A stretch of 61,550 bases of DNA, filler included. It is 13 parts of 13 records of this genome, joined end to end, with 100 filler letters (N's around TTAATTAATTAA, not from the genome) between each part and the next. Parts side by side here need not be neighbours in the genome. Positions count along the whole stretch, not along the records: positions 56,991 to 61,550 come from SRR15195285_5300; 12 more parts are not named here. One strand, given 5' to 3'. The notes beneath the pieces are model-generated. The model was given only the letters and a program-made list of their open reading frames with translations, was not told where the DNA came from and made no database searches. Position 1 is the stretch's first letter, and each line of letters starts with the position of its first letter. The position numbers and the translations under genes were made by a program. Positions 24,750 to 61,550 of the stretch are shown here, piece after piece.

Positions 24750-24849
24750 NNNNNNNNNNNNNNNNNNNNNNNNNNNNNNNNNNNNNNNNNNNNTTAATTA
24801 ATTAANNNNNNNNNNNNNNNNNNNNNNNNNNNNNNNNNNNNNNNNNNNN
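24750..24849. other. Artificial contig-joining spacer
   Basis: N44-TTAATTAATTAA-N44. Confidence 0.98.
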
Positions 24850-27800
24850 TTGCGCGCAGCATTTCTACCGCGTTGCTTGGTGGGGGCTGCTGCGGTTGGT
24901 GCATTTGCTGCGGCTCAGGCTGCGGCAGTAGCTCAGGCTGTGGCCGAGGCGGCCGCTGCTGCTGCCTTTCTCGCAACATCTGCACCGCGGCTCCTGGTGG
25001 CGTCGGCGCCGGCTGCTGGTTCAGGCCCGCAGCCTCGGTTGTGTCCGCTGGTGCGCCTTGCCTCCTGCGCAAAAAGTCAACAGCCACCGGATTTGCTGTC
25101 ACCTTCGCGTCTTCATCAGCAATCGACTGCCCGTTGGAATGGCTCCCGTTCAGCTCATGGGCACCACCACCGGCAGCTTCCGCAGGCCTCGGCGGGCCTG
25201 ACCGATCCGCTTCGTATGCTTGGAAGACTATGTGAGATCGAGGGCAAGAGGAGAACATAATCCTCACGGCCGGATTAAAGGAAAAGAATCGCTTCAGCTC
25301 CCGCTGTCGGCCTAGTACGGCGTGGATCGCGGTGTCTGCCAAATCCTCTGGTAAGAAGCCCTGATCCAGGTAGGCATCCACGCGGTGCGTGAAGTCCGCG
25401 GCCACGGCGTTGTAGGCAACAATGGTGTGGCAAATGCGCATCGTGTTCGGGGCATCAACCTGCATCTCCGCAAGCTTTCTCTTGCAGCGAATGCAGCACT
25501 TCATAGCGTTCACTGAGAAGCCTCCGAGTTGTGAATTCGAATCGGCACCGTCCTCTGAAAGCTGCTCCAGCTGTTCTATCAGGGCCAGGAACATCTCCGT
25601 GCAGAGCAACCTGTGGGTGAAAAATCTCGTCGCCTCATTTTTCTTCAACCCCTTGTCCACGTACTTTGTCATGCAGTCCTCAAGTGCATCGATCGGAGAG
25701 TCTCGCGCTCCCTCAGATGACATTCGTGTCATACGGCTGCCACGTGATTCGTCGGCTGCTCCGCCACTAGAAACCACTTGCTGCAACTGAATATCGTTGA
25801 GGTCGATGGCCTTCCCAACCATCGCAGACAGCTCGCTGTAAGCCTTTCGACTGATAGACTTCTTTTCACATGCATGAAGAAAGTTCGACCGCATAGACGC
25901 AAGCATGATATCGTACATGGCAAAGCTGTGATCGATGTCTGAATTGGAGTCGCTTGCAGCCAGCCACCTCCTAATGTTTCGGAGTTTATCCATGTGGCTT
26001 GGCCCGTGACCATGACCGTGATCGTGACCGTGATCGTGACCGTGATCCTTTTCGTGGCCACTGTGATGACTGATGCTGGACCCTGTCCTATGAGGACCGC
26101 CTTCCTCGTTAGTGTCGCCGCCCATGCCGTCGGAAAAGAGGACTGCGTTCCGCAAATCAACATTCACCTCGCCGCCTTCTCCACTGTCAGAGTGAAAGCA
26201 GGACACCACCAGGTCCGCTGTGCCGGCACAATGGGAAGTCTGCGGAGTGTCACCTCCTGCCGAGGTCAACTCGCATGTTTCGTTCATGTCTCCTCCTGCT
26301 AAACACAGCGAAGACAGGTCAATTGAGCACTCGCCAATCTCATGATCGTCCTCGCCGAAGTCACTATCGTAAAATACCAGCTGCAGTGTGACCGGTACAT
26401 CCTTCGATATGGCGGAGAGAGCGAAGTCGTGACTAGCTGTTCCCGCAGGCCATGTGGGTGAGTACGTGTGATTCACCACTGGTGTCTCAAATGTGTAGAC
26501 GTCGTCTCCGACGACCAGTGTCATGACGCCGTACGGGTTCGGTGCCATGATATTGCTCGCGACTGAGGCTCGGGAAGCCCGCAAGTCAGGCTTTGCTGTA
26601 GCACAAAGGTCAACAATGCTGATCGACGTGTCACTAATACTAGCATTGCTGCGCACAGACAGCATTGCATCGTCATCAACAGGCGGAAGAGTCGTTGGCA
26701 CGAGCTGATTTTCCAGGATGCGAGTCCATACCGACTGCATGGGGTGAATCTTGATGTCTACCAGGTCACCGTCTAGCATGTGAGCCTTCGCTAGGTTTGG
26801 CATCAGGCTACCGAGTGCGTCAATGTCCACATTCGAATGGAACCAGTGGCTTTTGAGCTTGAACATGAATCTGTCCATCTCGGCTTGGATTGTTCGTAGA
26901 CTCTGGGTAGCGAGCCCGGGTCGGTATGGATTTGGTGGGTACACCTCGAGCATCTTGTAGACCTTGCCAGAGGTGGTGCCATTTATGACGAGGGTGAGAG
27001 TCACAATGCCTGTTGTCTGCAGGAAGATCGTCTCGCGTGCACGATCTCCGATGAGGTGATTGCCGTCAATCAATAGCGCCAGCGAAAGAGAGACAGCCCC
27101 CCGGAGGCCGCCCCAGACCAGTACAACCGCCTCCTTGAGCGAGAGTCCGTAGCCTATCTTGGTGAGGATCGGCGAAAACAGGGCAACAACGCCGGCACGA
27201 ATGAACCCAAGAACAATCCACAGCGTGAAGTTGAGGACTACCTGGTTGCCAACGTGGAACTTGGTCTCAGCTGTGTCGTGTAGACTTTCTGTGCACTCGC
27301 CACCTAGTTCCGGGCCGTCCCAACGGCAGACGTGATGTGTCAAGCACACCTGCTCCTGTTCGATGGGTCCACAAACTTCTGCTTTGTCCTCAGCAAAGTC
27401 GTCCTCAAAGTTTTCAACGAATGACGCAATCTTGTCTCTGGATTTCACCCCGGCCAGGATGAAGATGAAGCTGGTTGCAACGTAGCCAACTTCACCCCAA
27501 AAAGCATGGTTGGCGTGATGTGTACGTTCGTCCATCGCAAGAAAGCTCGTGCGCGCTGCCTGCACACCGAACACCACTGTACCCAGCACGCCCGAAACTC
27601 CCAGAACATTCTCTGCGAGCCAGAAGGTGCTGAGAGTACCGACCACAAGAGTCGTGATCTCGATGTTCGGATCGCGTACGTGCTTAATAGCCTCGTAACA
27701 CACAGCTGCCACGAACAGACCCCAGAGTACACCACCGCCAGCGAGCTTGAGTAATGTGTTGATAACCTTGAACGCCGTGGTGTCACAGCCACTTGCGACG

Positions 27801-29371
27801 CCCTGCATCACCATGAAGGCCACGACAGCAGTTCCGTCGTTGAGCAGCGATTCACCTGCAATCATGTAGTTGAGCTTATCTGGGCAACCGAGATCGTTGA
27901 GAACGGCGCAGACGGCTACCGGGTCGGTAGCGGCCAGCATCCCTCCCAGCAGCAAGTGGACTGCCACTGGCAACTGTGGGCTCGAAAAACTACCTTCGAC
28001 ACACTCCATGCAGATGAAACCACCATCAGGTCCTTGCTGAGACTGCCAGTGCGGGTTGACTCGCGGCTCGCACGCCTGGAGACAGTCGGTGTTGGCTGCT
28101 GAATCTGGATCGCACGGCTGATCTCCGACCATGAAGGTGTTCTCGCGAGCCCCACCGACCATCAGCGCACCAGTGACAAGGTCTCTCTCGACGACACACT
28201 CCTCGGCAAACCCAAACAGCAGCATCGTAGTGGCTGCCGTGAGAAGCATTGAAATTAACACTCCTGGGCCTGCCAGGATGACCGAGGACAGCAGCACCTT
28301 CCGGAAGACGTAGTAATCCATGCTGCTTGCGTCTTCGAAGAGCAGCGGTGGAAGCAGTACGAACAGTATCACGTGCGGGTGTGCAGCCTTCCATGCGAGT
28401 ACCGATTTGAAAAGCATGCCGGATAAGCCGGGGTGCTCGTCCGCGTGGCCGCTGTGACCGTGCCCGTCCACTTCCTCTGACGCCTCCAGACCTTCGACAC
28501 ATAGGTGCGAAATATAGTAGCCGAAGAAGAACATAACCACTGTAAATGGTGGGTTGATTGACTTTCCGCAGCATGCGCCGCTGTTCAGCTTGTTCAAGAT
28601 GGTCGTGACGACAACGGTCGCGACAAGGCAGGCAAGCAGGAAAGGCCACCATGCAAGACCGTCGTCATCGTGGTGGCCAGCAAGGCACGGGTCGAGGTTG
28701 CTCTCTTCGAACTGTTCCTCGTCGGTGAGCCCCTCCCCGTCGGTCGCATTGCAGTACACCGGGACACAGTCGTGCTCGCCTTTCGCACAGAGGCGCGGCA
28801 CGCAGTCTTTGCACTTGATGTGGATCGTCTCATTACGGTGGGATACATGATTGTAGATCACATGCGCCATGCAGCCCGTTTCCTCTGCGAGCTCGAGTGT
28901 ATGGCCCGTGCCGTGCAGTAAGCTTTGCATGGCAGCGTCCTCGCCGCACAGAACGGGCTCGCAAGCCGTCGTCCGGAACACGTCCACAGCGTTCGGCGCG
29001 TCGCCGTGGCCGTCGCTGTGGCCGTCGTCGTGCCCCCCTGCAGGCCCATCGCCACGCCCCCCACGGTCGCGATACTCGCAGCACGCTCCGAGACAGCTCG
29101 CCAACGCACCTTCTATGCCGCATAGCTCCTCCGGCGCGCCGGCTACATCGTGGCAGTTCTCGTCGTTCGGGCCTTGCCAAGTACGGTCGTCCGCCCCGCA
29201 GTCCCGCGACTCCTGCAGCGCCCTTCCGTGCTCAAGACCGCCCCCCCCGTCCAGCACCGAGACCTCCACAGCAAGAGAAACACCGGTAGCAGCAGTACCA
29301 GCGCCCCCCGCAAGCGCACAGCCAGCAGCAGCACACAGAGCCTGCACGAGCCGTCTCGCCAATGTCCCCAT
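24850..29371 (-). CDS. SOS1/SLC9C-type (CPA1) Na+/H+ antiporter with Cys/His-rich N-terminal ectodomain and inserted C2 domain, 3'-truncated (paralog 1)
   Basis: PFTVVMF, HPHVILFVLLPPLLFEDA, ATDPVAV, GESLLNDG, GVSGVL, WGGLRGAVSL, TLVINGTT. C2 core NPYG...TPVVNHTYSPTW...FYDSDFGEDDHEIG. Confidence 0.92.
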
Positions 29372-29501
29372 CACCGCCTCAAACCCCGGCTAACTCCGCA
29401 CCCTCAAAACCACCCAGTCAATCGCCACCCTCCCACCCTCTCCCACGGCAAACAAGCCTCGAAGTCCCCGGGCAGCCCTTAGAATGTGCGCAACGTGGTC
29501 C

Positions 29502-57520: not shown

Positions 57521-60500
57521 TCAGTGATGCGACTGCAAAACCATGATGCTCGGTGTATCACGTGTGCCCGCCAGCAATGCGCTATACGAGTGAAAGAGGC
57601 GACAGGCAGCTGGTAGAGTGTGAAAGACGCACCTGATACTTCTGATCCAGAAAATACGTCAGCACCGCAGGGTGCCGCGACGTTTCATCGTTCCCAAACC
57701 CAAGCAATGTCTTGATGATGACTACCGTGCCAGGGAAGAAAAAGTCATTCAACTCAACCTGTACCGTAGACATCCGATCACGACAGTCAGAGCCATCCCA
57801 AGATCATCAGCGTGGGCTTGGCGGCATCGATCCGTAGCAGCGGACAGGAAAATTGCACAGAATCATGAGAGAGCTGCTTATGAGGCGCAAGGGAATGGCG
57901 CACGAATCTCTCTGCCAAGCGATCCTCTACAGCACGAAGCATCCTGAGTGATAAACAGCCCATTTCGTAGCCCTTCTTCAGTCGATGACGGTACTCCTCA
58001 GCAAGCACCCGGAAGGCGATGACTGAATGAATCGCCGTGTAAGTGTTAGGCATATGTCGACGCTGCTCACGGATCAAACTCTTCGCTGCCTTCTTGACTG
58101 CCTCCAGCTCCTCTAGAACTTGGTCATCAGCAGCGGCTTCCTCATCTGTGAGGGAACCGAATGATCGCGAGCTCATGACATCGATGGCCTTGGTCAAGAC
58201 AAAGAGAATTTCCACACAGGTCTGCATGTGGGCGAACGCCATGTGCGGGACACGTTCGCCAAGCACGCCATCGTTGCCAGTGCGGATGAAATCCTTGAGC
58301 TCATCCCACATAACCAGCAACGCCCCCTTTGCCAGCGTTCCCGAATCGTGCGCCTCAATCGCCGCGTCGTTTGCAACGCCTATCGCATCCTCAAGTGCAT
58401 TTGCCGCAGCATCCCCTATCGTGTCTGTTTCTCCAGCCTCACGGAACATTGCAAGCATGTGCTGCAAAAACACACCGTACAAAGCATTCCGCGCGTCAAA
58501 CTCGGAAATCTCCCCTTGGTCAGTGTCCATTCGTACCATCCGATTCGCATCGGCGAGCATGTCGGTCGCATCGTGTATACTCTGATCTAGCAGCTTCTTG
58601 TTCGTAGCAGATACATTTGGAGGGTCTGATGCAGCAAGGTCACAAGCTTTCAATACCTCGACCTCAACGTACCCAATGCTTGCGATTCTCTTCCCAAGTT
58701 CGACTTTTTGGGGCGTCATTGGCTCTTCGGGGTCTTTCGGGGTAAATTTGATCCGCAACCTCAGTGAACCCTGTATGAGCGCAGCTTTTCGCGCTGATAC
58801 AACGATGCTGCTTGCCGCCATTTCAACACTACGGGCGGCCGCTTCACCGGCCTTGATCATGCCTGTGATGCCTTGTTCTACCTCGTCCACGACTCTATGA
58901 ACTCCTTGCTCAGGCGATTCAGGGCTGTTAAAACTCTGCGCGATGCCCTCTTCCACTGAGAAGTTTCGTGTTGGTGCCGTGAGCTCAATCTCCTGCTCGA
59001 ACTCCGCGATGTCTGGGTAGCTTGTTGATGCTATAGTTTCCCGCAGGTCCACTTTGGCTTCGCCAAGATAGTCGTCAACTAAACCATAATCCCAGTCGTA
59101 CACTGTGGCGTACACCGTTGTCTCAGCTGATTCGATCCGGTAACGGAACTTATTGGCTTTTTTCCACACCGGATTGAGGTTGGCTTTCTGGACTGGCGTA
59201 GACTTGCGCTTGCTGGGCCGGCCGTCACGATCCACCAGGACTTCAACGTAGGGATCACTGGAGCCCACCAGCACTGATGATCCATCAGTGAGCATCACCC
59301 TGGACGACTTCTGACGTAACTTGTCGATTGGACCGCGTGCAGAAATTTTCTTCGTCGGTGTGCCTTGCTTGATTTCTGCTTTCCAATGGGTCTCATCAAC
59401 TGGCTTAGCCTTATATCCGACCAACTCATCATGGACAAGCTCTGCGTCGGAGAAATCAATCATCAAATCCTCAACGATCTTGAAATCGGCGTGGCCGTGA
59501 AATTCGTCCGCGGCCAAAGCTGCATGCATCCACGACATTGAGTCCTCGTGCAGGCAAGCCATTGCCTGCCGTACAAGCTGATCACGGTAGCGGTTCTTGC
59601 GATACAAGTCCAGGCGCTGGTAAACATAGCCACAGAGAGTGCCGTTGATGAGCAAGGAGAGTGTCACTACCCCAGCTGTCTGGATCAGCACAAAGTCTTT
59701 GGTTTTGCTCTCAATCGTTGGATGTGAATCGATTAGCAACGCCAGTGCCAGCGACACAGCACCGCGCAGGCCAGCGAACGTCATGAACATCGCCTCCTTC
59801 TTGGTCACGCCATACCCGATCGTTTGTAGGATTGGAAACAACGACGTGATGGTGAGCCCGCGGACGACAAACACGGCAACGTAAAATATTAATGTCAGAA
59901 CCAACAGCTGCGTCAGCTCTTGAACTGACAGAGGTTCACCACTGAGAATGTCGCTCTCATCGACTTCGCGGTTAAACATTGCGTCAACTTTTCCACGTGC
60001 TACGATTCCAGTAAGCGTGAAGATGACCAGCGTCGACACGAAGCCCATCTGCTCCCACATCATGTGATTTCTCTCGAGACAGTCAGGGCTCATGCAGAAG
60101 TAGCTTTTGCGTGCAGTTGCCAGTCCAAACACGACGCTCGCCAAGATTCCAGACACACCGAAAATCTCCTCCGACGTCCAGAACACGGCAAATACGCACG
60201 TGATCACTATTGTTATCTCTACAATGGGTTCACTGACAAACCGCATCCAGATGGACATGGTATGGGCGGCTATCCAGCCCCAGGACACCCCGCCGATAGC
60301 GAGCACCACAAATCTGCTCAAGACTGAGCTGAAGTCAGTGTCGGAGCATTCAGCGACTAAGTCTCGAAATATCCAGAACACCACGACGGCGGTTCCATCG
60401 TTCAGCAGCGACTCGCCTCCAATTATCAAGTTCAGCTTTGCGGGAGCGCCCAGCGACTTGAGGACTCCAAGCACAGCGACCGGGTCTGTGGCCGACAGGA

Positions 60501-61239
60501 TGCCTCCCAGTAGCATGTGCGTCGTCCAACCGTATTCGTTTCCAGCGAGTAGGTTGAATAGAAACCACGAAAACGCGCCCGACAAGGCTGACGAGATCAT
60601 CACGCCCGGCCCAGCCAGCAGGACTGACGAGGGCAGCGACTTTCGAAACACGTGATAGTCGATACTGGCCGAGTCCTCGAACAGCAGAGGAGGCAGTAGC
60701 ACGAACAGGATGATGTGCGGGTGGGTGTTGACCCAGCCACTCACAGAGAGATCCATCCTCGAGAAGTTCTGCTTCACGAAGTCTAATGTGGTGATGGTCT
60801 CGACAGTGAACCCGAACAAGAACATCACCACCGTAAACGGCAGCCCCATTCTGCGTCCACAGATCTTGTGGCTGCTCAGCTTAACCAGGAGTGTGGCGAC
60901 CGCACACCCAATTCCCAGCATCAGGAGTAGGGCAGGCATTCCACCTAGGCCGTCGTCCGAGTCGCCGTAGTAGCACTGGATCATCTTTGGTGCAGGGCGC
61001 TGTAAGCTGGGGAGCATCGAGCAGTTGCCGCCGCCGCCCGCTCCACCCTGCGGATCCCACTTCAAGCACGTCTGCGTAAACTGCACGCACGTCATCGAGT
61101 GCATCGCGTCGCACTTCTCGCTGCGCACGGACGCGATCAGCGCCTGGAGCTCCTCCGCCAACTCCCATTCCTCCGGCAGATCGGCGCTCGAGGAGTTGGT
61201 CGTGTTCATGAAGCCCTCGGCGCTCGACGGCGACGGCAT
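57521..61239 (-). CDS. SOS1/SLC9C-type Na+/H+ antiporter with inserted C2 domain (paralog 2); exons 61239-57904, 57758-57633 and tentatively 57532-57521
   Basis: LPFTVVMF, HPHIILFVLLPPLLFED, ATDPVAV, GESLLNDG, AGLRGAVSL. C2: SSDPYVEV, NLNPVW, VYDWDYGLVDDYLG. Splicing intron 57759-57903 gives ERFVELNDFF, matching paralog 1 RQRELKRFF. The last exon is uncertain. Confidence 0.9.
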
Positions 61240-61525
61240 CCCCTCCCTCAGATGCTAGGGGGTGGGGGCGGTGTGTGTGTGTGGTCGGGAGGGGTGTGGG
61301 GCAAGCCCCCGCAGGTGCCTCTGCAACCAGCGCGCGATTCGCGGGGCGGGCGGAATTGAGTTGGTGGCGACCGCGATGGCCTCGTTCCCACGCGTTCAAG
61401 ATCCGCAGGTAGTCTCCGGCTGCTTTACGCTGGTCTATCCACCCCCTGCCCACAGAGCGTTCACAGTCCAGTTCAGCAGGAATCTGACGCGCCTCTCTGA
61501 CTACGACACAGAGAGACGCGACACG

Positions 61526-61548
61526 CACACACACACACACACACACAC
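61526..61548. repeat. (CA)n microsatellite
   Basis: About 11 units at the window end. Confidence 0.9.
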
Positions 61549-61550
61549 GC

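Follow-up and report, generated by a model that had tools for sequence, protein, structure and literature searches.

What has become of the first β-strand in a C2 domain that seems to begin in the middle of its own calcium-binding loop? The question is raised by two sodium/proton exchanger genes of a marine protist, here called gene A and gene B, which lie on the minus strand of a 61,550-nt stretch of joined genome records (the window). By sequence, both encoded proteins are SOS1-like exchangers, gene A having an SOS1/SLC9C-like CPA1 membrane domain closest to SOS1/NHX7, and they share a layout in which the exchanger domain is followed by a C2 domain in the tail. The Pfam C2 match sets in only at profile position 19 (gene A) or 21 (gene B), so that the first strand is missing from its expected place. 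A preliminary description of the window had proposed that this strand stands at the other end of the domain, as a third permutation with its termini in loop 1; ortholog conservation, a strand-1 scoring matrix, AlphaFold2 models, structural alignment and a fragment fold all agree with that proposal. In our judgement, the roughly 215-residue cytosolic insert of both exchangers probably is a complete, eight-stranded C2 domain of the PKC/synaptotagmin type in a third circular permutation, neither type I nor type II. In the ordinary type II domain, strand 1 is N-terminal and is joined by loop 1 to strand 2, and the termini lie opposite the Ca2+ site. In the exchangers, the chain would enter midway through Ca2+-binding loop 1, just before the Asp of the SDPY motif, run through type II strands 2–8, pass a linker of ~21 residues and end the domain with strand 1 and the first loop-1 Asp; this terminal strand would then fold back to take up its customary place, flanked by strands 8 and 4.

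If true, a conserved third topology cut inside a Ca2+-binding loop would mean that the fold tolerates an opened loop 1, and the domain would illustrate clearly how duplication followed by truncation can permute a protein in nature. There is also a practical side: Pfam annotation cuts off the relocated strand, and constructs designed on the Pfam boundaries of gene A (residues 658–738) would consequently be without three strands. Passages in two articles name type I and type II as the only C2 topologies (PMC8507603, PMC9333456). Neither a third or circularly permuted C2 topology nor a C2-bearing SOS1-type exchanger was found in the open-access literature, subscription journals being outside the scope of the search, and in the CIRPIN paper a C2 review appears in the reference list only. 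As far as the open-access literature shows, the permuted strand order is therefore new, within a well-studied fold.

Strand order in the gene A sequence

Gene A (57787–61239, minus strand) is an uninterrupted single open reading frame (ORF) for an SOS1-like Na+/H+ exchanger of 1150 residues (P0001; paralog 2 of the preliminary description). Residues 117–535 match Pfam Na_H_Exchanger (PF00999; E 9.6e-47), and among solved structures the best match is to Arabidopsis SOS1/NHX7 (7y3e; E 2.5e-64), spanning query residues 117–615; beyond residue 615, the PDB sequence match to SOS1 does not continue. The solved structures nearest to the transporter part are those of plant SOS1, from Arabidopsis and rice (7y3e, 8jd9 and 8iwo), and that of the sperm exchanger SLC9C1. 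In the tail, the membrane domain is followed by a helical stretch and then by the Pfam C2 match (PF00168) at residues 658–738, which covers profile positions 19–95 of 104 at 50.8 bits (E 2.2e-13; cutoff 22) and rises to 55.3 bits when the isolated insert is searched.

Translation of gene A bears out the motif order originally reported for this paralog, with SDPY first and the first strand after the last one. SSDPYVEV (residues 660–667; window 59239–59262) is followed by NLNPVW (687–692; loop 2), VYDWD (713–717; loop 3), DDYLG (722–726) and GSLRLRIKF (824–832; 58744–58770; last strand), all on the minus strand. Only then comes the relocated first strand with the first loop-1 Asp, GYVEVEVLKACDLAASD (856–872; 58624–58674, minus strand), as identified by matrix, conservation and models. 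The span first assigned to the insert, 58624–59270, is correct in content and wrong in length: it runs two bases beyond the codon-bounded 58624–59268, and its direct translation is therefore out of frame.

Within the codon-bounded span, the C2 core with type II strands 2–7 (residues 658–753; 58981–59268, minus strand), delimited by Pfam, PDB matches and AlphaFold2, starts in loop 1 at G-S-S-D662-P-Y and contains loop 3 as D715-W-D717-Y-G-L-V-D722-D723. It is succeeded by an insertion of ~70 residues in the strand 7–8 loop (754–823; 58771–58980, minus strand), variable in length and with conserved islands, by type II strand 8, which equals type I strand 1 (GSLRLRIKFTP; 824–834; 58738–58770, minus strand), and by a 21-residue linker (835–855; 58675–58737, minus strand) that leads from strand 8 to the relocated strand 1. 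On the N-terminal side, the domain is preceded by a linker (616–657; 59269–59394, minus strand) that is unconserved, probably disordered and devoid of a first strand. On the C-terminal side, a conserved exit segment, PPNVSATNKKL...DATDMLADANRMVR (873–903; 58531–58623, minus strand), which is kept in orthologs, leads into the C-terminal helical domain.

Could the first strand nonetheless be present upstream, in a form too degenerate to be recognized? The insert would then be an ordinary type II C2 domain with a decayed strand 1 around KISARG...SRVMLTDGSSVLVG, and the downstream strand what is left, without function, of a second C2. When canonical C2 proteins are aligned by phmmer, some alignments do reach into the upstream segment (query positions 4–20), and the downstream strand resembles the first strand of a lost second C2. 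However, the upstream segment is absent or different in five of the seven gene A orthologs (38–95% identity by BLASTP over the queried region), in whose alignment the 30–45 residues before G[ST]SDPY are gapped and without shared sequence. All 78 PDB C2 sequence matches likewise leave this stretch uncovered, each of them starting at VGSSDPY (query positions 26–32). The supposed remnant, by contrast, which follows the last strand and reads IGxVEVEvLKAsnLAASDPPNVS, ranks with the most highly conserved parts of the region and still has the loop-1 Asp.

Scoring of the strand itself points in the same direction. A representative search yielded 613 proteins with E-values no higher than 0.001, and the top 150 of them, mostly multi-C2 proteins, were used. 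The 24 residues before every [ST]DP[YF] in the non-family proteins yielded 459 distinct canonical segments, and from these we built a 17-position log-odds matrix for the first strand plus loop-1 Asp. In all ten gene-A-type proteins (P0001, P0004–P0009, the fragments P0017 and P0033, and P0047 from a third exchanger lineage), the C-terminal strand was the top window of the whole protein, at 16.7–21.2 bits (16.7 bits in gene A), compared to a median of 13.8 bits for true canonical strands; for each of the ten, none of 300 shuffles reached its score. Within 45 residues upstream of SDPY, the best score ranged from −4.0 to +2.4 bits (10 of 10 full-length antiporters), and the upstream segment of P0001 scored −15.1 bits where the canonical offset would place the strand and no more than −3.2 bits anywhere within those 45 residues. 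In 144 other proteins, an upstream strand at 3 bits was missing from just 9 of 452 canonical SDP[YF] motifs.

The unusual order might also be an artefact: the C2 domain would be scrambled if the sequence were mis-assembled, if an in-frame intron had been left unspliced or if the gene model were wrong. A eukaryotic window was, after all, read here by a bacterial ORF finder, and gene B ends in a gap: a run of N at about 24794–24842, seen as X in translation, breaks its 3′ end. Moreover, two relatives, P0010 and P0013, switch to unrelated Pro/Arg-rich sequence exactly where the relocated strand should begin, as if frameshifted. This divergence could be an assembly error or a decayed copy, and because of it both proteins were excluded from later alignments and fold input. 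Yet the colinear order recurs in nine further proteins (P0004–P0009, P0017, P0033 and P0047) from several independent sources (jgi, ena, lgn), and gene B, its ortholog P0011 and two channel proteins share it as well; in addition, the ORF of gene A is uninterrupted and the insertion between strands 7 and 8 carries conserved residues. We give almost no credence to a scrambled sequence and return to the permuted domain.

Predicted fold of the two inserts

Residues 631–895 of gene A were modelled with AlphaFold2 from a 10-sequence alignment (model numbers are P0001 numbers minus 630); gene B and P0011 were kept out of this input because their last two strands were misaligned there. The model has a mean predicted local distance difference test score (pLDDT) of 63.9 and a predicted template modelling score (pTM) of 0.60. 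Its strands at model residues 33–41, 67–72, 77–85, 93–101 and 115–122 have block pLDDT values of 77–95. Next come the insertion (131–183), of low confidence and partly helical (helices at 165–177 and 186–189), strand 8 at 195–204 (pLDDT 87–89), the 21-residue linker at about 50, and an 11-residue DSSP strand at 226–236, GYVEVEVLKAC (pLDDT 83–86); the exit segment stays below 50 in this isolated-domain model. DSSP gives strands only to ladder residues, so that segment 226–236 is paired in the model. In total there are seven DSSP strands of at least three residues, plus short bridges at 45 and 49–50 where the eighth is expected, and both inserts are predicted to fold as an eight-stranded antiparallel β-sandwich.

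The preliminary description had named the outcome that would have spoken against a permutation, namely a model that uses the upstream segment as strand 1 and leaves the C-terminal strand unpaired. No such arrangement was obtained: upstream residues 1–29 contain no strand and remain below a pLDDT of 50 (33–44), and the C-terminal strand is the confident one. Added to the sequence evidence above, this makes a degenerate upstream strand very improbable in our view.

When the gene A model was compared with solved chains by VIA-align, it matched C2 domains at Z 8.4–10.9, with root-mean-square deviations of 1.9–3.2 Å over 92–115 residues. The top targets were cPLA2, PLC-delta1, PKC-epsilon, Munc13-1 C2B, NEDD4 and dysferlin C2A, which we take to be type II. 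In all 50 of the matches listed, the alignment begins at model residue 22–31 and ends at 203–225, so that strand 226–236 is never used; those to type II domains reach the last strand of the target. On the target side, the N-terminal end is skipped in the rows checked (cPLA2 1rlw 34–141, PLC-delta1 651–756, PKC-epsilon 31–134 and 9zk6 19–126), and the skipped residues presumably are the first strand of each target. As far as the model goes, this pattern is the signature that a one-strand circular permutation of a type II domain leaves in a sequential aligner. A Foldseek search with the whole gene A model gave modest E-values (best 2.3e-4) because of the disordered stretches, the trimmed VIA-align comparison being clearer. 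Features from the ESM Atlas returned only generic C2 clusters at 0.77–0.79, under the meaningful level, and were not used.

Does the relocated strand complement the rest of the domain? In a fragment-complementation fold with ESMFold2, in which the user alignment was unused, the core (27–208) was paired with the C-terminal piece (209–265). The fold scored 0.82 (runs 0.81, 0.83 and 0.82) against 0.34 for the best control, the benchmark mark being one that 51 of 78 solved complexes reach and only 2 of 108 mismatched pairs. The runs share at least 83% of contacts, at a partner pLDDT of at least 59. Partner residues 223–241 make contiguous antiparallel contact with 191–205 and 66–75 (202–228, 197–233, 68–230 and 70–228), touch the alternate residues 35/37/39 and 77/79/81/83/85, and also contact 29–33 (SSDPY) and 58–62 (loop 2); D872 and its neighbours thereby meet S660–D662, the other half of loop 1. 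Put in terms of strands, the relocated strand is predicted to have strands 8 and 4 on either side and to pack against those residues of strands 2 and 5 that face inward. The sheets of C2 domains run 4-1-8-7 and 3-2-5-6 in type II numbering, and by this order the slot between strands 8 and 4 would be that of canonical strand 1.

Alternatively, the domain could be completed in trans, with the strand, or the hairpin of strand 8 and strand 1, swapping into the seven-stranded core of the other protomer and thus stapling a dimer. CPA1 exchangers such as SOS1 are homodimers, the ~70-residue insertion and the 21-residue linker could reach a neighbouring protomer, and in the fragment fold the strand complements the core as a separate chain. 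Against this, the single-chain AlphaFold2 model closes the fold confidently within one chain, and the same order appears in a loop of a voltage-gated channel, where such a dimer is unexpected. A strand swap between protomers strikes us as improbable, and in what follows we treat the permuted C2 as closing on itself.

Gene B (24794–29374, minus strand; paralog 1 of the preliminary description) is an ORF for a second SOS1-like exchanger, of about 1511–1526 residues (Pfam Na_H_Exchanger E 1.1e-36). According to both sequence and AlphaFold2, its C2 domain (residues 945–1082; 26129–26542, minus strand) has the same strand order, with PNPYG at the start (945; NPYG at 946), strand 8 as GTADLVVSCF at 1051–1060 and the relocated strand 1, GEVNVDLRNAVLFSD, at 1068–1082 (26129–26173). 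The Pfam C2 match covers residues 944–1023 and profile positions 21–92 of 104 at 23.6 bits against a cutoff of 22, or 29.6 bits for the isolated insert. The model contains eight strands in the order of gene A, the last one at E169–182 (GEVNVDLRNAVLFS; pLDDT about 60); upstream, model residues 1–46 have a pLDDT below 50 and a short helix, and no strand. VIA-align places it at Z 8.0–8.7 to type II C2 domains, over model residues from 39 to 161–170. In 46 of the 50 rows the match ends at or before residue 170, and the remaining four, all of them whole ferlins, reach 183–184 via jumps between target domains. With a 13-position matrix, the gene B strand scored 5.3 bits, as the only window of the insert above 3 bits, and that of its ortholog P0011 scored 3.5 bits, as the best of two. 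The assertion that both paralogs share one order hence holds for gene B in that the order is seen and the model agrees with it, and fails in that it is not significant by sequence alone. The permuted order in gene B is consistent with every result and rests mainly on analogy to gene A.

Several points weigh against a third permutation. With the 17-position matrix, other windows outscore the strand in gene B and in P0011, and the gene B model is weak (mean pLDDT 52, pTM 0.51). The alignments behind both models are shallow, that of gene A holding 10 sequences and that of gene B only 2. Searched on their own, the C-terminal pieces (56 and 41 residues) gave no Pfam C2 match at E up to 10, since pieces of this length do not pass the filters. 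Among PDB sequences, a profile built on strand 8, the linker and strand 1 returned one weak match only (E 1.3), in which strand 8 falls on the last strand of the NEDD4 C2. Within the AlphaFold2 model, the slot of the strand is deduced from DSSP and confidence, the contacts coming from the ESMFold2 fragment fold only; a pass in the latter may in part reflect model memory of solved C2 folds, and it denotes likeness to a complete C2, not binding strength. As to function, Ca2+ binding, membrane binding and an effect on transport are putative properties of the gene A protein. Its N-terminal connection, moreover, is a long, floppy, unconserved and disordered linker of roughly 30–45 residues, which speaks against rigid force transmission; any rigid coupling would have to go via the exit segment, residues 873–903. 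On the N-terminal side, the linker thus also weakens the suggestion of the preliminary description that Ca2+ could act directly on the transporter's cytosolic helices.

Known C2 topologies, probable origin and calcium

How does the permuted domain relate to its canonical counterparts? With type II domains (PLC-delta1, cPLA2 1rlw, PKC-epsilon 1gmi, Munc13-1 C2B 6nyc, NEDD4 3b7y and plant E-Syt1 C2A 7atp), it would share the same sandwich: strands 2–8 of gene A superpose at Z 8.4–10.9, including the strand 7–8 connection, and loops 2 and 3 are intact. In contrast to type II, however, strand 1 of the exchangers would follow strand 8, loop 1 would be open and the termini would lie in the Ca2+ site; a VxVxxAxxL strand is lacking within 45 residues upstream (10 of 10 antiporters) and occurs about 190 residues downstream instead. 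The best sequence matches to the core are type I domains (synaptotagmin-1 C2A/C2B and PKC alpha/beta/gamma; Syt1 2r83, E 8.6e-14), with which gene A has the SDPY, NPVW and DxD...D ligand motifs in common. A further likeness to type I is that the equivalent of type I strand 1 directly precedes the VxVxxAxxL strand. In type I domains, though, both strands come before loop 1, whereas in gene A both (824–834 and 856–866) come after the rest of the C2.

Most likely, judging from the sequences, the permutation arose by duplication and truncation of a tandem C2 pair: a type II pair would have lost strand 1 of its first copy and everything after loop 1 of its second. A profile of strand 8, linker, strand 1 and Asp, derived from seven gene-A-type sequences and searched in 145 other proteins, gave 129 domain matches, spread over 82 proteins. 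Of the 40 best, 33 place the family's last strand on a canonical first strand that is directly followed by G.SDP[YF]. In the protist tandem C2 arrays P0118, P0034, P0031, P0127 and P0015, the entire unit, from strand 8 through the linker to strand 1, matches the region where successive domains join, which likewise consists of last strand, linker, first strand and Asp. The linker itself varies in length and sequence among orthologs and aligns with the inter-domain linkers of tandem C2 proteins. Single E-values of the profile are modest (best 0.0013, in a small set), and the weight lies in the positional consistency; landing on first strands and tandem junctions fits permutation by duplication. 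What sets the arrays apart is that each of their first strands leads into its own SDPY core, whereas no second core follows in the antiporters. The preliminary description had offered, as its own alternative, a normal C2 followed by the remnant of a second one. Part of this survives, as the C-terminal strand probably was the first strand of a lost second C2; by our models, though, it is no leftover and would now complete the first domain.

Would the domain still bind Ca2+? Gene A retains all five canonical acidic ligands, D872 and D662 in loop 1 and D715, D717 and D723 in loop 3, and a calcium-bound state would be expected on this basis. In alignment with synaptotagmin-1, the SDPY Asp D662 and the loop-3 residues D715, D717 and D723 are matched, and D872 stands four residues after the L of AxxL, which is the loop-1 Asp position in the canonical consensus. 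In line with the earlier remark that paralog 2 retains its Asp ligands, D662, D715, D717, D722/D723 and D872 are invariant or nearly so; in model numbering, D32, D85, D92, D93 and D242 are invariant in the gene A alignment and D87 nearly so, P0047 having N at the position of D717. In gene B, the set is kept in part, with N for the SDPY Asp and H at the last ligand position.

Since the chain enters by one half of loop 1 and leaves by the other, bound Ca2+ would fasten the two connections to each other. A second possible effect, in addition to this or in its place, would be the docking of loop 3 (W716, Y718 and L720) on the inner membrane leaflet. By either route, the result would be a built-in Ca2+ switch on an SOS1-like exchanger that apparently has no cyclic-nucleotide-type domain. 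We put this switch forward tentatively, as a mechanism for gene A towards which we remain somewhat more sceptical than inclined. Plant SOS1/NHX7 and sperm SLC9C1 are, like gene A, long-tailed CPA1 exchangers with regulatory cytosolic domains. The tail of gene A differs from theirs in holding a C2; a cyclic-nucleotide-binding-type domain gave no Pfam match at E up to 1 in either protein, although a diverged copy could escape. In plants, Ca2+ input reaches SOS1 indirectly, via the separate SOS3/SOS2, whereas here the exchanger chain itself would carry a Ca2+-type sensor. The regulatory meaning of the permuted C2 is plausible but unproven. In marine protists, SOS1-type exchangers and a channel family may accordingly be regulated by Ca2+ directly, and a C2 domain with its termini at the Ca2+ site could serve as a ready-made insertion module for Ca2+-switchable proteins.

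A channel family with a similar module, and further features

One of the nine canonical-motif exceptions mentioned above, P0124, is a voltage-gated-type cation channel of 1475 residues with three Ion_trans stretches. Its C2 match (profile positions 13–102) begins right after the pore-lining helix, and its last strand is followed by a strand-1-like TVLQVIIERGENLCEAD that scores 8.0 bits and is not significant. In P0161, the only relative of P0124 found, ARVIVTVTGASNLLSDD lies 188 residues after SDPY; its 18.7 bits exceed the matrix score of every other window in that protein, and none of 300 shuffles reaches it. The channel C2 is located in an inter-domain loop (P0124 residues 397–570, P0161 residues 262–475, both outside the window), and its core is 42% identical to that of gene A. 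Together, these sequences suggest that a voltage-gated channel family carries the same permuted module.

One might go further and regard the permuted C2 as a mobile Ca2+-clamp module that marine protists repeatedly inserted into cytosolic segments of ion-transport proteins. Its hosts would comprise a multi-domain voltage-gated cation channel and no fewer than three lineages of SOS1-like exchangers, and Ca2+ would close loop 1 non-covalently, changing the geometry of both chain connections. We hold this broader view to be doubtful; if true, Ca2+ would control transport through the module itself, and no sensor protein of its own would be needed.

The insertion in the strand 7–8 loop shows features of its own. 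Its length ranges from about 33 residues in P0047 to over 130 in P0009, and in P0006 and P0007 it contains short internal repeats of a VGSAVSKGVT-like type. It always closes with a conserved Ala-rich helix (KAGEAAAR...ARQAALIQG). Just after strand 7 stands a motif R-x-F-[ST]-x-E-[ED], kept in the orthologs that cover it (RNFSVEE in gene A, residues 758–764; 58948–58968, minus strand). From its sequence, R758-N-F-S761-V-E-E looks like a basophilic-kinase phosphorylation site, in the loop adjoining the putative Ca2+ site. We put down to chance a weak TetR_C_41 match within the insertion, which scored 17.7 bits where the cutoff is 27.

In gene B, a His/Asp/Gly-rich run, HEKDHGHDHGHDHGHGHG, directly follows the C2 domain (residues about 1103–1127; window about 25990–26070, minus strand). 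A similar run is present in P0011, and the stretch may be metal-binding. At the very end of the window (about 61500–61550), a (CA)n-type dinucleotide repeat is read as THTHTH or CVCVCV in translations.

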